Assembly (NCBI RefSeq): GCF_022846255.1
Contig: NZ_AP025682.1
Direction: 5' to 3' (one strand)
From: Escherichia coli
GTDB taxonomy: Bacteria; Pseudomonadota; Gammaproteobacteria; Enterobacterales; Enterobacteriaceae
Length of the DNA stretch: 64,000 nucleotides
Shown: piece after piece, positions 10,429 to 18,342 of the stretch
Layout of the letters: every line of letters starts with the position of its first letter
Numbering within the stretch: the stretch's first letter is position 1
Position numbers and translations under genes: made by a program
Notes under the pieces: model-generated
Databases searched by the model: none
The model's input: only the letters and a program-made list of their open reading frames with translations
Told to the model about the DNA's origin: nothing

Positions 10429-11730
10429 TTATTTTAATGGACTAATATCACTATTATTATCGCTATCTGTGATTTTTTCCCCATTCACGGAGATCATTCC
10501 CTGGATATATGAATCCCATAGATGTACGTCACCTTTATGAAAAATAATGCATGACATTGCGATTTTTTGTACTTTATATATCTGTTTATAGTATTCTTCT
10601 GAGTTTAATGGTGTATCTTTCAAGCTTTCATTCCTTGCTGGAAGAATCTTGACGGGACAGATAAAATCTGTATCCCCGAGTGAAAAGACATTAACTCCGG
10701 TTATAAAAAAGATACCCGGAATGTCTTGATGCAATCTCGTATTCCAGACTTGAGGATTAAACAGTTTATATGAATATTTATTTACATCTATATAATATTG
10801 ATGAGGACGCCAATCACTGATACCCGACATACTCATCGTCATATTGATAATTATATCAGGAATAGGTTTGAATAATACACTTAGAATGAACAATATGGCA
10901 GGAGGGAGTATTGCGATAGATAGCAAAGAGTTCAACCCTTCTTCTTGTTTTTCTTCTTGCTCATTTATCACTATCACACCTGGCAACATTCCTAAAAAGA
11001 TAAAAGCTAATGCAATGCAAGAAAATGATAGAAACTGTGATAAGATATCTGCACTCTCTTCAAGTCTGATCTTATTTGTCAAAAATAGCAGGGGGATAAT
11101 CTGAACAAGCCCGGGTAGAATTAAACATAAAGGAAGAGTGTATCTTATCCTGTTCCTGGGACGATATTGTTCGTGATTCTCGTGATTCTCGTGATTCTCG
11201 TGATTCTCGTGATTCTCGTGATTCTCAATGTTCTGTTCCCGAGGGGTATTTTTAGTGAATATTAATTTTTCTGAGAGGAAATATGAGACGAAATAATTAA
11301 ATAATACTATTAGTATTACTTCTGATATGGATGGATATAGAGTATTTTCTTCTGAAAAGGTAGACAGAACTGACTTTAGCACTAATGAAAAATAGAAAAC
11401 AACACTGTTCATATAGCAAATTATAGCAATTCTGTGCGCGATTCCTTTGTGATTTTTATAATAGTCTTTATGCCATGTATATGTATACACCAATACATGA
11501 GAAGATATAAAAATCAGTGAGGTTAGAGCCATTAGAGATAAAAGGATAAATATAAAGATAACACTTAAATAAAACTTTATGTCTATTGAGTCGAAAAACA
11601 AATCAAGTCTACCGAGTCCTTGCAGATAGAACCATATTGCAGATATGGCGCATCCTGTACTAAATACAGAAGACGTTAACATGGCGAGAAAAGCTTTATT
11701 ATTTAAATGTGAAAAGATAGATCTATTCAT
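10429..11730 (-). CDS. hypothetical multi-pass membrane protein with internal (ENH)6 repeat and ~130-aa C-terminal soluble domain
   Basis: ~433-aa ORF (ATG 11730; track start GTG 11739); ~7-8 hydrophobic helices; His-rich loop NIENHENHENHENHENHENHEQ encoded by a 9-bp tandem repeat; AT-rich codon usage. Confidence 0.55.
   Translation of the reverse strand: MNRSIFSHLNNKAFLAMLTSSVFSTGCAISAIWFYLQGLGRLDLFFDSIDIKFYLSVIFIFILLSLMALTSLIFISSHVLVYTYTWHKDYYKNHKGIAHRIAIICYMNSVVFYFSLVLKSVLSTFSEENTLYPSISEVILIVLFNYFVSYFLSEKLIFTKNTPREQNIENHENHENHENHENHENHEQYRPRNRIRYTLPLCLILPGLVQIIPLLFLTNKIRLEESADILSQFLSFSCIALAFIFLGMLPGVIVINEQEEKQEEGLNSLLSIAILPPAILFILSVLFKPIPDIIINMTMSMSGISDWRPHQYYIDVNKYSYKLFNPQVWNTRLHQDIPGIFFITGVNVFSLGDTDFICPVKILPARNESLKDTPLNSEEYYKQIYKVQKIAMSCIIFHKGDVHLWDSYIQGMISVNGEKITDSDNNSDISPLK
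11171..11226. repeat. 9-bp tandem repeat (TCGTGATTC)x6 inside the membrane-protein CDS
   Basis: Six perfect tandem copies seen directly; unit is 3 codons, so copy-number change is frame-preserving. Confidence 0.9.
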
Positions 11731-11945
11731 TATAAGCACATCATATTCTGTTGAGTATATGTCGATTTTATAATGTCATGTTCATGCAGATAATATCATA
11801 AGTAACATTAGTTGAACAAGAACAGAGTTGTAACAGATAAAGATCTCGTTGTTAGTTACATGATCTGATAAATGTTAGCATGAAATAGTAACTATATGAA
11901 GGATATAAGAACCTGTATCATAATGTCATATGCGTTATATCTGAT

Positions 11946-12707
11946 TCAGATATATTTTAATTTTGCTGATAGTTCTCGACATGCTTCAAGAACCAAAGTG
12001 GAATAATATTCTACTTTTTCTTTTGGCATTTGAATTTCCACACCACTAATGCTGATAGCAGCAATTGCTTCTCGAGCCTGATTAAACACCGGGGCGGCAA
12101 TGCAATAAATTCCTGGTGAATCTTCTGCGTTATCAAAAGCCCATCCTCGCTCACGAATACGTGCAAACTCTAGTATTAGATCAGATTTCCGAGTGATTGT
12201 CGTTTGCGTAAATCGAGGCAATGCCTCCTCAGGTAGTAAAGTGTCAATGACGTCTTGAGGTAACCATGCGCATAACGCTTTCCCCACCCCTGAGCTATGG
12301 AGTGGCAGCTTCTTACCTACCCACGTTCTGATACCAATTGGTTGAGTGCTTTCGAGTTTTAAGATATAGATTGGAGCGACTTCCTCAAGAATGCCTAAAT
12401 GGCAGATAAGATCAGTACTATCTCTCAGTTTTTCCAGCACCGGTCTCGCTACCTTACTTATGTCAAACTGTTCTAGCGAGCGATTTCCCCATTCATATAA
12501 TTTCAGTCCAAGGAAAAAACGCCCCCTTTCCTGACGTAACAAATGGTGTTCGACCAGAGCATTCAGTAAAGATGATGTGCTGCTTTTAGGCAGAGCCAGA
12601 TCTTGCTGGATTTGACTGAATGTGGCACCAGGAGAGTTGAAAAGATAATTGCAGATTCTGACTGTTTTATCGAGTGCTGGTACTGGTGTTCTTGTTTGAT
12701 TATTCAT
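11946..12707 (-). CDS. IclR-family transcriptional regulator
   Basis: 253-aa ORF; N-terminal HTH and C-terminal IclR effector domain pattern (GxxxLxxxDxxxxxxGWAxDxEExxxGxxCxAAPVF); divergent from the DapA-like operon. Confidence 0.85.
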   Translation of the reverse strand: MNNQTRTPVPALDKTVRICNYLFNSPGATFSQIQQDLALPKSSTSSLLNALVEHHLLRQERGRFFLGLKLYEWGNRSLEQFDISKVARPVLEKLRDSTDLICHLGILEEVAPIYILKLESTQPIGIRTWVGKKLPLHSSGVGKALCAWLPQDVIDTLLPEEALPRFTQTTITRKSDLILEFARIRERGWAFDNAEDSPGIYCIAAPVFNQAREAIAAISISGVEIQMPKEKVEYYSTLVLEACRELSAKLKYI

Positions 12708-13204
12708 AAAAAAATAACATATGATTTCTTACCAATGCTAAATAGTATACCCCAATCTTTATTAATGCATAGTGATGCTTAATCATTATGTTGCAGTTGA
12801 TCGACACAGGGGGACAAGAGTAGTTGTGTCACTGCCACATCACCCGGCATGCGATTTCACATCGGGATGTTCGAGAAGCATCAATGCTGCGCCCAAGATC
12901 CACCGAAAAGAAACGTGGGAATCACCGGCGGTGGGATTCATTGTCTATGCCCGTGTAGATTAGTGTGGATTTGCTGCACAGATGGTTCCGGTCTGAGAAA
13001 TGGGTAAATTCGTCGTTTACGACGGGAAGCTGCCTACACATGTTATACATCGTCTTCGTGTATCAACATGCTCCTATAAACTCGACTCAACTCACATTTT
13101 TCATTTCACATTGTAAAAACCTTTGACATGCAGAACCTTATTCTGATTCATTATATTCAACATGAAGAACTTTTGTTCCATATACAGAACTTAGTGAGAG
13201 CGAT

Positions 13205-14104
13205 ATGTTGACAGCGTTTAGAGGTATTTTTCCGCCGGTTCCTACTATTGTTGACGCACAGGGGAAACTGGATAAGACGGGTATGGCCCGAATGATTGAC
13301 CATGTAATAGAGAATGGTGCAAACGGAATGCTGATCCTAGGCAGTGGGGGCGAATTCTCACAATTTTCTTCCCAACAACGAAAAGAGATAGCAGCATTTT
13401 GTTTAAATCATGTAGATGGAAGAGTGCCTGTACTGGTGGGGGTTGCTTGTGCCGGGACAGCAGAAACTATTGAGCTGGGACGCCATGCTTATGAGCACGG
13501 AGCTGATGGTGTGCTGGTTGTTAATCCGTATTATGCAAAACTCAGCGATGATGCCCGGTTTATGCATTATAAATCTATTGCTGATACACTTGAAATCCCG
13601 GTGTTTCTCTATAACTTTCCTGATTTAACCGGCCAGGATATTGGACTTGAAGTCATTACCCGGCTGGCCCGGGAAGTTCCTAATATCGTGGGTATCAAAG
13701 ATACAATCGATAACATCAGTCATACCCGAGAAATTATCAACCGTGTACATTCATTTCGTCCGGATTTCATTATATTCAGTGGTTATGACGAATATATGCT
13801 GGACACTCTGTTACTGGGTGGTCATGGCGGTATTCCGGCAACATTCAATTTTGCTCCGGAAATCACACGGGGTATTTATCAGGCTGTTATGGAAAATGAT
13901 CTTGATAAGGCGCGTTATTTCCAACAACAACTGGCAAAATTGTCTCCGTTGTATGCGCTTGAGCAACCTTTCTTTGGGGTGATAAAGACCGCCATCAAAC
14001 TGAGTGGACTGGACATATCTACTGCAGTTATGGCACCGGCTCTTCCGCTCAGTGATGAGAAAATATCCAGAGTAAAATCCATTCTGGAACAAATTCATCA
14101 GTAA
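13205..14104 (+). CDS. DapA/NAL-family class I aldolase/dehydratase (2-keto-3-deoxy sugar acid type)
   Basis: 299-aa ORF; GSGGEFSQ and NFPDLTGQD...VGIKDT motifs; ~50% identical by eye to the YjhH-like ORF at 29909-30814. Confidence 0.85.
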   Translation: MLTAFRGIFPPVPTIVDAQGKLDKTGMARMIDHVIENGANGMLILGSGGEFSQFSSQQRKEIAAFCLNHVDGRVPVLVGVACAGTAETIELGRHAYEHGADGVLVVNPYYAKLSDDARFMHYKSIADTLEIPVFLYNFPDLTGQDIGLEVITRLAREVPNIVGIKDTIDNISHTREIINRVHSFRPDFIIFSGYDEYMLDTLLLGGHGGIPATFNFAPEITRGIYQAVMENDLDKARYFQQQLAKLSPLYALEQPFFGVIKTAIKLSGLDISTAVMAPALPLSDEKISRVKSILEQIHQ

Positions 14105-14120
14105 TCACGAGGGACGCAGG

Positions 14121-15638
14121 ATGAATAACTCTCAGGTACTCAAACTCAATAATCTGGATGATGTTGTGATTGCCATAACAGAGCTTCCTGCCGGAAGCTG
14201 GTTGAAGGCAGAAAATATCGAAACGCGTGACCTTATTCCGGCCGGACACAAAATTGCTCTTCGTGATATTCCTGCTGGTAGTGCGGTTAAGCGCTATGGA
14301 CAAATTATCGGCTTTGCCACTCGTGATATCCGCCAGGGGGAACATATTCATGTTCATAATCTCGGTATGGGAAATTTTGAACGTGATTATGCCTGGGGAA
14401 TAGACAGCCATCTTCCTGAGCGGGATGTCCATCAGGATACTTTTATGGGGATCAGAAGAAAAGACGGGCGAGTGGCAACCCGTAATTTTATCGGTGTGCT
14501 GAGTTCGGTGAACTGTAGCGCAACCGTGGTCAGAGCCATTGAGGATCATTTCCGTACCCGAGGCCTGAGCGATTACCCGAATGTTGATGGTATTGTCGCA
14601 TTGCCTCAGAGCTTCGGCTGCGCCTTTGGCTCTAATACTGAAATGATGAAAGTCATGCGGAGAACGATAGCAGGCTATGCCACTCACGTAAACTTTGCCG
14701 GGATTGTGATAGTGGGACTGGGATGTGAATCATTCCAGATTAAGGACATGATGAATGCCCATGGACTACATGAAAACCCGATGTTTCATACACTGACAAT
14801 TCAGGAAAGTGGCGGAACACGCAACGCTATCGAAAAGGGTATTTCGTTTATTCTTGATATGCTGCCGGAAGCCAACAATGTTAAACGTGAACCTGTTCCA
14901 GTGTCAGAAATTATCCTGGCCCTTGAGTGTGGTGGCTCAGACAGTTACTCAGGAATTTCTGCCAACCCGGCACTCGGTTATGCAGTTGATCGTCTGGTCC
15001 GTCAGGGAGGGACGGCCATTCTGTCCGAAACATCAGAAATCTACGGAGCTGAGCATCTTCTGACACGCCGTGCTATTAATCGTGAAGTGGGAGAAAAGCT
15101 AATCCGCAGGATTAAGTGGTGGGAGGAGTACTGTAAACGTACGGGTAGTGAAATGAATAACAATCCCTCCGCAGGTAATAAAGCGGGAGGGCTGACTACT
15201 GTTCTGGAGAAATCACTGGGTGGAATCGCTAAAGCCGGGACAACCAGCTTAATGGATGTGTATGAATATGCTGAACCTGTAACAGCAAAAGGGCTTGTCT
15301 TTATGGATACCCCCGGGTACGACCCGATGGCGGTAACTGGGCAAATTGCCGGAGGCGCTAATCTACTGTGTTTTACCACGGGTAGGGGATCTGCCTTTGG
15401 AGCAAAACCCACGCCTTGTCTGAAACTGGCGACCAATAATGCATTATGGCAACGACAGCGTGATGACATGGATTTAAACTGTGGCACGATCGTTGATGGT
15501 GAAGAAACGATTGAACAGGTAGGGGAACGTATTTATCAGAGAATTATTGAGCTGGCTTCAGGTAACCGTAGCCGAAGTGAAGAACTTGGGTATGGGAGTC
15601 TGGAATTTGTTCCTTGGATAATGAACTCAATAATGTAA
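14121..15638 (+). CDS. UxaA/GarD-family sugar-acid dehydratase (altronate/galactarate dehydratase-like)
   Basis: 505-aa ORF; SD GAGGGA; N-terminal SAF-like region and C-terminal dehydratase region typical of this family (recalled). Confidence 0.75.
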   Translation: MNNSQVLKLNNLDDVVIAITELPAGSWLKAENIETRDLIPAGHKIALRDIPAGSAVKRYGQIIGFATRDIRQGEHIHVHNLGMGNFERDYAWGIDSHLPERDVHQDTFMGIRRKDGRVATRNFIGVLSSVNCSATVVRAIEDHFRTRGLSDYPNVDGIVALPQSFGCAFGSNTEMMKVMRRTIAGYATHVNFAGIVIVGLGCESFQIKDMMNAHGLHENPMFHTLTIQESGGTRNAIEKGISFILDMLPEANNVKREPVPVSEIILALECGGSDSYSGISANPALGYAVDRLVRQGGTAILSETSEIYGAEHLLTRRAINREVGEKLIRRIKWWEEYCKRTGSEMNNNPSAGNKAGGLTTVLEKSLGGIAKAGTTSLMDVYEYAEPVTAKGLVFMDTPGYDPMAVTGQIAGGANLLCFTTGRGSAFGAKPTPCLKLATNNALWQRQRDDMDLNCGTIVDGEETIEQVGERIYQRIIELASGNRSRSEELGYGSLEFVPWIMNSIM

Positions 15639-15705
15639 TAACACAGGGCAGAGTTTATCCTGCCCTGTTGAAGTAAACACCGTTTTAGATAATTAGAGGT
15701 GAATA

Positions 15706-16713
15706 ATGGAACAGAAACCTGTGTTGGGAATTTTTTTAGGTGAAGCTGCCGGTATCGGACCAGAATTGATTGCTAAGGTTGTTGCTGATGGTACTGTCTA
15801 TAAATATTGCAGACCCGTTCTGATTGGTGATGCCCGTGTTCTTGCTCTTGGACAAAAGATTGCGGGTGTTCATTTTCAATGGGATGTAATAAGTGACCCA
15901 TCAGAGGCAGACTGGAGCACAGGAAATGTACCATTACTTGATTTAAAAAATTTCAACCCCGAAAAACTAACTATGGGGACCATTGATACCGATTCAGGTT
16001 ATGCAACCGGGGAATCATTGGTAACCTGTATGTCATTACTCAAATCAGGAAAGATTGATGGTTTTGTTTTTGCTCCATTGAATAAAGAGGCGTTCAAGAA
16101 AGGGGGCTGGGATATTGAAGACGAACATTATCTGTTTGCAGAGCAGTTAGGATGCCTGGATAGACCTCGCGGCCTGTTGAATGTCCTGGATGATCTCTGG
16201 GTTTTCCGTGTGACCGGACATATTCCGTTCAAAGATATTGCCAGCCATATTACTCCAGAAAATGTTAGCCGTTCGATTCAGTTATGCTATGACACACTAC
16301 GTATGGCAGCTATTGAAAATCCGCGAATTGCAGTTGCTGCACTTAATCCCCACGCCGGGGATGGTGGAACCTGCGGCACCGAAGAAATAGACGTGCTCAT
16401 TCCAGTAATTGAAAGTTTTCGAAAGAAAGGAATGGACATGTATGGGCCAGTTCCAGGTGACACCATTTTTATTCATGCGTTTAATCATGAATATGATGCG
16501 GTTGTTACCCTGTTCCATGACCAGGGACAAATTGCTACTAAACTGCATTCCTTTGACGTGGGAATAACTGTTGCCGCAGGACTTCCGTTCGCTATTACAA
16601 CACCAGAACATGGCACTGCATTTGATATTGCAGGTAAGGGGATCGCAAAAACAATGGCTACAGAGAGGGCTATTGCCGTGGCGGCCAGAATGGCTTCTAC
16701 AACACATAAATAA
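15706..16713 (+). CDS. PdxA-family NAD-dependent dehydrogenase (PdxA2-like)
   Basis: 335-aa ORF; SD AGAGGTG; PdxA-type pattern (AALNPHAGDGG..., HDQGQIA). Confidence 0.75.
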   Translation: MEQKPVLGIFLGEAAGIGPELIAKVVADGTVYKYCRPVLIGDARVLALGQKIAGVHFQWDVISDPSEADWSTGNVPLLDLKNFNPEKLTMGTIDTDSGYATGESLVTCMSLLKSGKIDGFVFAPLNKEAFKKGGWDIEDEHYLFAEQLGCLDRPRGLLNVLDDLWVFRVTGHIPFKDIASHITPENVSRSIQLCYDTLRMAAIENPRIAVAALNPHAGDGGTCGTEEIDVLIPVIESFRKKGMDMYGPVPGDTIFIHAFNHEYDAVVTLFHDQGQIATKLHSFDVGITVAAGLPFAITTPEHGTAFDIAGKGIAKTMATERAIAVAARMASTTHK

Positions 16714-16983
16714 AAATTCATAATAGCAGATAATATAATGTCTAATCTATACAGATAGATGTGAATATTATCTGCGTTATAATAAACTGTATAAGGCTAT
16801 TATAAATAACAGTCGGTGTTTTGATAAGTTGCTGGTTGTTATATCTTTAAAACGAGTTGATGATATTTATTTACTAGATATTCAGTGCGATTATAGCAGT
16901 ACTGTATCGCAAGAAAATAGCAGTGCTGGGGAAGTAGAAAGAATAAATTGCGATTTGCATGCTCATAGATAAGGATAGATCTC

Positions 16984-18342
16984 ATGTATTCAGAATCATT
17001 TGTGATGATAAGTGGGCTTGTTGCAATAGTTATACTTATCATCTTGATCACCCGATTTAAGCTTCATCCTTTTTTTTCATTGCTTATATCGTCTGTATTT
17101 TTGGGAATTGTGAACAATATTGGAGTGGCGAAAAGTGTAGATATATTTACGCACGGGTTTGGTAGTCAACTGTCTGTCACGGGGGTAGTTATCGGCTTAG
17201 GCGCAATGTTGGGGGGGCTATTGGTACAGTCTGGAGGAGGGGACAAAATAGCCGATATTATTATTGGGTCTAGAAAAATTGTTTGGATGCCTCTGTGTAT
17301 TGGTATAGTTTCGTTAATCATCGGTCTACCTAACTTGTTTGAAGTTACTTTTGTACTGATGGTACCCCTTGTGTTCTCTATTACCAAACGTTTGGGGTTA
17401 CCTGTTCTCAGAGTTGCACTCCCAATGTCTGCAGGATTAATGACAGCTCATGCGTTATTACCGCCTGGTCCGGCAACTATTATCGCTGCTACGGCTTATG
17501 GTGCCAGCATCGGAGAAACTACGCTTTATGGGGTGATTATTAGTATACCTGTTCTACTCTCAGGAGCTTATCTTTTCCCAAAAATAATGCACAAACATCT
17601 TAACGTGGGAGAACCTTTGGCACTGAATGAAACTGAACATAGACGGGGAAATAACGAACGTCAATTATATCGCCAACCATCGCTGACTGTCGCTTTGATA
17701 ACAGTTATGATCGCCCCTTGTCTGATGATTGTTGGGACTATTGGACTTGACTTTTTGCCAAAAACAGGTGTGGTCACAGAGGTATTCCAGGCACTAGGCA
17801 ATCCAGTAATAACTCTTGGACTTGCTCTGGTTTATGCCATGATATTTCTGGGACGGGGAGTGGGTTTTAGTAATGAAGAAATCCTGTCTATCAGTAAGAA
17901 AAGTATTGTGCCTATTGTTGGTTTGTTGCTAATTATCGGTGGAGGCGGTGGATTAAAAAACATACTAACAGCAATTGGTCTAAGTGATATTATCAGTAAC
18001 TTTGCTACGGATTGGTCTATTCCTCCGCTATTATTTGCATGGCTGGTGGCAGCTATTTTCCGCATTGCGCTTGGCTCTGGAACGGTGGCGGTCTCAGCTT
18101 CAGGAGGAATCGTTGCCGCGTTACTTACAGCACATCCAGAAACTAACGCAGCTCTATTGGTACTTTCAACTACGACTGGGGCAATGATTTTTTCACATGT
18201 CAGTGATGGGGCATTTTGGTTATTCAAAGAATACTTTGGACTTAGCGTACCACAAACTATTCGCACATGGAGTTATTTAGTCACGATACAGTCCATTGTC
18301 GGGCTTATAGGTGTATTGGTTCTAGGCGCTATTCTCAGTTAG
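16984..18342 (+). CDS. GntP-family (gluconate:H+ symporter family) permease
   Basis: 452-aa polytopic ORF with GntP-type motifs (LPPGPATIIAA...; IIGGGGGLK). Confidence 0.85.
   Translation: MYSESFVMISGLVAIVILIILITRFKLHPFFSLLISSVFLGIVNNIGVAKSVDIFTHGFGSQLSVTGVVIGLGAMLGGLLVQSGGGDKIADIIIGSRKIVWMPLCIGIVSLIIGLPNLFEVTFVLMVPLVFSITKRLGLPVLRVALPMSAGLMTAHALLPPGPATIIAATAYGASIGETTLYGVIISIPVLLSGAYLFPKIMHKHLNVGEPLALNETEHRRGNNERQLYRQPSLTVALITVMIAPCLMIVGTIGLDFLPKTGVVTEVFQALGNPVITLGLALVYAMIFLGRGVGFSNEEILSISKKSIVPIVGLLLIIGGGGGLKNILTAIGLSDIISNFATDWSIPPLLFAWLVAAIFRIALGSGTVAVSASGGIVAALLTAHPETNAALLVLSTTTGAMIFSHVSDGAFWLFKEYFGLSVPQTIRTWSYLVTIQSIVGLIGVLVLGAILS

Follow-up and report, generated by a model that had tools for sequence, protein, structure and literature searches.

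The window analysed here, a 64-kb stretch (64,000 nt) of Escherichia coli DNA, carries a gene for a predicted membrane protein whose coding sequence contains a perfect in-frame tandem repeat (Table 1). An alternative in-frame GTG start lies upstream of the ATG, at 11739, and would give an ORF of 10429–11739 on the minus strand. The gene is located downstream of an IclR regulator and a sugar-acid operon, in DNA with a GC content of 31–32% (window 10–12 kb) as against 40–54% around it.

Table 1 Coordinates of the repeat-bearing gene and its parts in the window
Feature	Position	Strand	Basis
CDS, 433 aa, unnamed family	10429..11730	-	stop codon 10429-10431; ATG 11728-11730; full-length homologues, dN/dS, AlphaFold2 (AF2)
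Tandem array, 6.2 x 9 bp (in-frame variable-number repeat)	11171..11226	-	Tandem Repeats Finder score 112, codon register, copy-number comparison
TM4-TM5 loop hosting the repeat, residues 154-198	11137..11271	-	hydropathy, positive-inside count, pLDDT 55-57
Membrane region, residues 14-287, seven predicted TM helices	10870..11691	-	hydropathy and AF2
C-terminal alpha/beta domain (~145 aa), residues 288-433, predicted periplasmic	10432..10869	-	

Several features of the surrounding DNA are recorded here in their own right. Positions 1–5000 of the window match, at 99% identity, part of an E. coli island that encodes an IS3 transposase, an AlpA/HTH regulator, YagK/YfjJ and zinc-ribbon proteins; only 87 of 5,426 complete genomes have a place covering at least 80% of this stretch. 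A region of lower GC content begins at ~5 kb (31–40% over 5–12 kb), and at its start lies a truncated gene: the 181-aa ORF at 4963–5508 (minus strand) matches only the N-terminal half (1–165 of 362) of the sugar kinase PRK09954. In the neighbouring gene for a TPR-like protein (ORF 8733–9800, plus strand), 9 bp are missing at ~9278 relative to all five related loci compared (L001, L007, L008, L032 and L033), a window-specific in-frame deletion of three codons. In the five loci carrying the second E. coli allele described below (L010–L014), the TPR gene side is replaced by IS110 remnants, beyond which come a type I secretion set (OEP, ABC exporter, HlyD-like) and, downstream, a large ORF (~11976–17263 in the coordinates of these loci).

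Tandem Repeats Finder reported the repeat as a single array of period 9 with 100% matches and no indels; its score of 112 far exceeds that of any other array in the window, the next best scoring 48. The unit is TCGTGATTC on the plus strand and GAG-AAT-CAC, or Glu-Asn-His, in the frame of the gene, and the six sets of ENH codons, ENHENHENHENHENHENH, span residues 169–186 (window 11173–11226). An initial annotation of this DNA had described six perfect 9-bp copies encoding (Glu-Asn-His)x6 between transmembrane segments. Repeat detection and codon register bear this out, and a Kyte-Doolittle scan places the repeat in the loop between the fourth and fifth hydrophobic segments. Six perfect copies of a 9-mer cannot have arisen by chance in 64 kb. 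No relevant paper was found when the literature was searched for the repeat sequence, as DNA or as the ENH peptide.

The ORF belongs to a family of full-length proteins. A word-indexed search of 5.8 billion proteins returned only eight clusters, consisting of an E. coli allele at 92% identity and full-length relatives of 413–422 aa at 33–46%. A profile search, run exhaustively, yielded 173 representatives at E ≤ 1e-3; almost all are 375–425 aa long and align over their whole length. Full-length homologues are spread across Enterobacterales and are also present in Pseudomonas, those in other genera being 30–48% identical, and scanning genomes with a profile from alignment A1 gave four loci. By tblastn, distant relatives are encoded on 1,230 plasmids, with 20–27% identity over 90–97% of the protein; the same type of search against a phage collection gave no match. 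One entry of the plasmid collection, NZ_CP134663.1 (L029), is labelled ‘plasmid unnamed1’ and is chromosome-sized (4.9 Mb); it encodes a 38%-identical paralogue of the window gene, with no annotation under it. The protein matched nothing in Pfam, NCBIfam, PADLOC or PHROGs, and a sequence profile search of the PDB returned only hydrophobic-helix noise.

We compared the window allele (allele A) with the second E. coli allele (allele B), to which it is 94% identical at the nucleotide level. The dN/dS ratio is 0.26 overall, 0.34 for the transmembrane part and 0.13 for the C-terminal domain. The database homologues, the end-to-end profile matches, this dN/dS ratio and a confident AlphaFold2 model together indicate a real gene. 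One could instead suppose that the ORF is non-functional here, being left over from a horizontal acquisition and now decaying or silenced, so that the repeat simply drifts. The low GC content would fit such a remnant, as would our failure to find a convincing promoter or Shine-Dalgarno sequence, the truncation of the gene by insertion sequences (IS) in several assemblies, and the absence of the locus from 5,426 complete RefSeq E. coli genomes, where only the IclR neighbour was matched, at 87%. NCBI annotations point the same way in that they call only a C-terminal fragment of about 180 aa. A fragment of this kind (179–185 aa) is all that is called even where the full 430-aa ORF is intact (L008 5251–6543 in GCA_023860325; cluster members P0009, P0010 and P0018), so that annotation of the family in E. 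coli is systematically incomplete. A decaying remnant is hard to reconcile with an ORF that is intact over 433 codons in the window, with the constraint between the alleles, with full-length conservation in other genera and among the 173 representatives, or with the confidence of the predicted fold, and we regard it as very unlikely. We conclude that, to judge by sequence comparison, the ORF is an intact, selectively maintained and rare accessory gene of E. coli.

Hydropathy analysis identified seven hydrophobic segments, at residues 14–32, 57–75, 101–119, 135–153, 199–217, 237–255 and 269–287. The AlphaFold2 model, built from a 78-sequence alignment (mean pLDDT 88, pTM 0.86), has helices to about residue 286 and then an alpha/beta domain at residues 289–414. 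This agrees with the earlier description of about 300 aa of membrane helices joined to a soluble C-terminal domain of about 130 aa and of unknown function; no structural relative of the domain was detectable in the PDB. The repeat loop, at residues ~160–190, has a pLDDT of 55–57 and is disordered in the model. Lys and Arg residues number 12 on one side of the membrane and four on the other; the protein is therefore predicted to have its N-terminus inside, the repeat-bearing TM4-TM5 loop on the cytoplasmic side and a periplasmic C-terminal domain, a topology drawn from hydropathy and charge counts rather than from a dedicated predictor.

Conservation in the family is concentrated away from the repeat. 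Only P250 (10981–10983), C358 (10657–10659) and C394 (10549–10551) are invariant in the 78 family members, with G303, W329, L356 and P359 nearly so, and a motif of the form W-x-Y-L-x-x-[IL]-G-R-x-D-x-F immediately after TM1 (residues 33–45, window 11596–11634) is 81–87% conserved. The two invariant cysteines suggest a C358-C394 disulfide in the predicted periplasmic domain. With the predicted topology, the conserved elements, namely the motif in loop 1 and the C-terminal domain that contains both cysteines, would lie on the face opposite the repeat. A separate observation concerns the N-terminus, where a lipobox-like S-T-G-C (residues 24–27, window 11650–11661) follows a K-containing stretch and fits a PROSITE-type rule. 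The motif is present in 14 of the 78 family members, comprising the nine closest relatives and five distant members; proteins of the closest subclade might, on the strength of this motif, be lipid-modified polytopic membrane proteins.

The array varies in length between strains. On a near-identical E. coli haplotype we counted 2, 3, 5, 6 (the window) and 11 copies, plus arrays of at least 9–10, with the caveat that some of the counts rest on short-read or metagenome assemblies, in which repeats can be sized wrongly. Two copies are present in a JGI metagenome contig with the flanks of allele A (L028), three in six ENA metagenome contigs (L001–L006), five in GCA_023860325 (L008) and 11 in two independent NCBI assemblies, GCA_016679035 and GCA_049866765 (L007 and L009). 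In GCA_036863195 (L032), nine copies are followed by a 100-N scaffold gap within the array, and in GCA_054938725 (L033) the contig stops exactly at the array, which suggests that both arrays are too long for short-read assembly. Apart from array length, the gene DNA of L001–L009 has 0–1 mismatches to the window. The flanks of the variant loci differ from the window by just 0–5 SNPs over 6–14 kb, indicating that changes in array length outpace point substitution by a wide margin. In allele B, all five loci read have two copies, a constancy that is consistent with short arrays being stable.

Could these differences be assembly artefacts, with short repeats collapsed or expanded and the true array the same everywhere? 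The sources are short-read isolate assemblies and metagenome contigs built with k = 99–119, and one scaffold has an N-gap in the array while one contig ends at it. However, at 18–99 bp the arrays fall short of the read and k-mer lengths used, and the counts repeat within groups, with three copies in each of the six ENA contigs and 11 in both of the independent NCBI assemblies. Five discrete lengths on otherwise identical sequence are likewise not what a uniform array would yield, and we give this explanation almost no credence.

The reading frame stays open through the array in the 2-, 3-, 5-, 6- and 11-copy variants, and we found no frameshifted variant. The expectation in the initial annotation that the tract would be hypermutable and frame-keeping, with loop length differing between strains, thus holds: with the haplotype nearly unchanged, copy number ranges from 2 to at least 11. 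Copy number is not invariant, and a dN/dS of 0.26 indicates purifying selection, though the gene is IS-truncated in some strains. The 11-copy arrays in fact sit in truncated gene copies: in L007 and L009 (3819–5470), an IS3-family orfB and an IS605 TnpB fragment take the place of the first 273 nt of the gene and of the side carrying the IclR regulator and sugar-acid operon. Since the array has reached 11 copies in a gene that is already truncated, its expansion does not require selection on an intact protein.

We compared the TM4-TM5 loop across 77 homologues. It is typically 24–30 aa long, has Lys and Arg well in excess of Asp and Glu, and contains 0–3 His. Only the two E. coli alleles have the ENH tract, and every homologue beyond ~92% identity lacks it. 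On this comparison the His/Glu tract is evidently a recent, lineage-specific insertion in a variable, disordered linker, and it is probably tolerated rather than functional. Because the tract is lineage-specific, the family loop is poor in His and the loop is disordered in the model, a conserved metal-binding function is disfavoured. The proposal, made from the His/Glu composition, that the repeat is a metal-binding motif is accordingly not supported: the loop of the family is basic and almost free of His, the pLDDT is low, and the predicted cytoplasmic side is opposite the conserved, predicted periplasmic face.

A stronger version of that proposal is that (ENH)n is a selected cytoplasmic His/Glu loop with a metal-binding or regulatory function, in which copy number tunes length so that strains differ adaptively in activity. 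CDF transporters carry a His-rich loop, and in both these (at TM4-TM5) and ZIP transporters, as in the window protein, a disordered loop rich in His and acidic residues joins transmembrane helices on the predicted cytoplasmic side. Glu/His-rich peptides can bind Zn or Ni, copy number varies widely among intact genes, and in tolA repeat number modulates stress and phage tolerance (PMC3477136). The likeness to the transporters does not extend further. The window protein has no sequence or profile relationship to either family; no Cation_efflux or Zip domain was found by Pfam, and the single Zip match among 78 family members, at E = 0.015, is noise. With seven transmembrane segments and a periplasmic domain, its predicted architecture is not a transporter fold, and the His-rich tract is not conserved in its own family. 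Disorder of the tract, its absence beyond ~92% identity from a family whose loop is basic and His-poor, and the presence of 11 copies in a truncated and presumably dead gene copy all argue against a selected module. So does the perfect identity of the units, which points to a very recent expansion rather than a long-maintained motif. We consider an adaptive loop of this kind unlikely.

The evidence described above is consistent with the following sequence of events. The array, (GAGAATCAC)n, would have arisen recently, by in-frame tandem duplication within this lineage, in the TM4-TM5 loop, which is variable, disordered and predicted to be cytoplasmic. Replication slippage or recombination between units would then add or remove whole Glu-Asn-His triplets; as the units are perfect and 9 bp long, the frame is kept whenever a unit is gained or lost. 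The locus behaves as a fast-evolving variable-number tandem repeat (VNTR) with 2 to at least 11 copies. We infer slippage as the mechanism of change, and the resulting variation in length would be near-neutral, a view favoured by the lineage-specificity of the tract, its disorder and its expansion in dead copies. An on/off, phase-variable frameshift switch does not describe the locus, where the 9-bp unit lies inside the coding sequence and no variant is frameshifted. Taken together, we put the probability at roughly three in four that this is an in-frame VNTR in a tolerated loop of a maintained accessory gene, near-neutral in length, and neither a conserved metal-binding device nor a switching one.

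The genomic neighbourhoods of homologues bear on the role of the family as a whole. ICE homologues occupy a cargo slot (MPF_G-type ICE) between T4CP/DtrJ-like genes and RAQPRD, except that one homologue (L034) follows TraG_N genes and adjoins HsdR. Type I restriction-modification (R-M) neighbours were seen at L017, L023 and L034; the Dickeya homologue adjoins type I R-M, RhuM and YjhX, and the Serratia homologue adjoins hsdMSR. The Samsonia homologue (L024) has an HNH restriction enzyme and a ZorB-like protein as neighbours, the Siccibacter homologue (L022) lies beside PDC-M15B and a prophage tail gene, and a homologue on a Cronobacter plasmid (L030) comes directly after a CBASS NTase and an S-4TM effector. 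Homologue P0058 (L035) starts 17 bp after the NACHT antiphage protein HyoA. The setting in Enterobacter cloacae is among metabolic genes (L021), as it is for the window gene. On IncFIB plasmids the family gene adjoins repFIB-int, far from tra, and no family member lies beside repFIB-int on the F plasmid. No conserved partner gene was found in the homologue neighbourhoods inspected.

Two details of these neighbourhoods were followed and set aside as evidence. An apparent retron beside L034 was rejected as a sign of defence, its reverse transcriptase matching generic reverse transcriptase and homing-endonuclease models. A partnership with HyoA was rejected likewise: two HyoA homologues, on Rhizobium and Burkholderia plasmids, have no adjoining family gene, and the ORF of similar size next to the Rhizobium copy is unrelated to the family (hhalign probability 0.6%). 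The HyoA assignment itself, at L035 (1187–5482) and L036, is of a 1,431-aa protein without a Pfam match that scores 1476 bits against the NCBIfam HyoA model (cutoff 1200), and a TacA/acetyltransferase toxin-antitoxin pair lies upstream of it.

These contexts fit a stand-alone gene that is carried as cargo and frequently ends up in defence islands, and they hint at a possible role in defence or exclusion. The PADLOC 2.0 and NCBIfam antiphage models assigned no family to the window protein or to nine homologues, and Pfam gave no match to TraS/Eex. It is quite improbable, in our estimation, that the gene encodes an unrecognised, stand-alone inner-membrane determinant of phage defence or of exclusion, borne on mobile genetic elements, whose hypervariable cytoplasmic (ENH)n loop tunes or diversifies activity in this E. 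coli lineage. The family is nevertheless sizeable and wholly unannotated, occurs on more than 1,200 plasmids, in ICE cargo sites and in defence islands, and has a confident predicted fold with no solved relative, which makes it a reasonable candidate for functional screening by phage, conjugation or bacteriocin challenge.

Comparison with known systems separates the protein from its repeat. The nearest counterparts of the protein are the hypothetical proteins adjacent to repFIB-int on IncFIB plasmids (WP_176489665.1 and WP_163425737.1, for instance) and AlphaFold Database (AFDB) entries such as A0A483I0T3 and A0AB36FIB5, which share its family and fold; full-length Foldseek matches have TM scores of 0.7–0.88. 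None of these relatives has the ENH repeat, and all are unannotated and so carry no functional information. Entry-exclusion proteins (TraS/Eex) and abortive-infection membrane proteins, which are single-gene membrane determinants carried on mobile elements, bear a resemblance to the family, whose members are predicted inner-membrane proteins encoded by stand-alone genes in ICE or plasmid cargo positions and in defence islands. Unlike them, the window family has no match in PADLOC, the NCBIfam antiphage models, PHROGs or Pfam, and no conserved partner.

The repeat, by contrast with the protein, has a close precedent. The locus shows three features of a tolA-type in-frame VNTR: perfect head-to-tail units, a unit length that is a multiple of three within a coding sequence, and a copy number that differs between near-identical genomes. 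The intragenic repeat of tolA varies among E. coli strains; its contractions depend on RecA and occur at 6.9e-5 (Zhou, Michiels and Aertsen 2012, PMC3477136). A change in the number of repeats in this envelope protein can alter phenotype (PMC3477136). The window locus shares with tolA, and with bacterial VNTR/MLVA loci, perfect short multiple-of-three units in the coding sequence of an envelope protein that always keep the frame; as in tolA, copy number differs among E. coli strains, presumably through slippage or RecA-dependent recombination. The mechanism of the repeat adds nothing beyond what tolA and the MLVA loci already illustrate. The tract is a verified example of hypermutability that keeps the frame, and it could provide a marker for typing, at high resolution, the E. 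coli lineages with the island. The two loci differ in their hosts: tolA is a conserved core gene in which copy number has measured phenotypic effects, whereas the window gene is a rare accessory gene with a lineage-specific tract.
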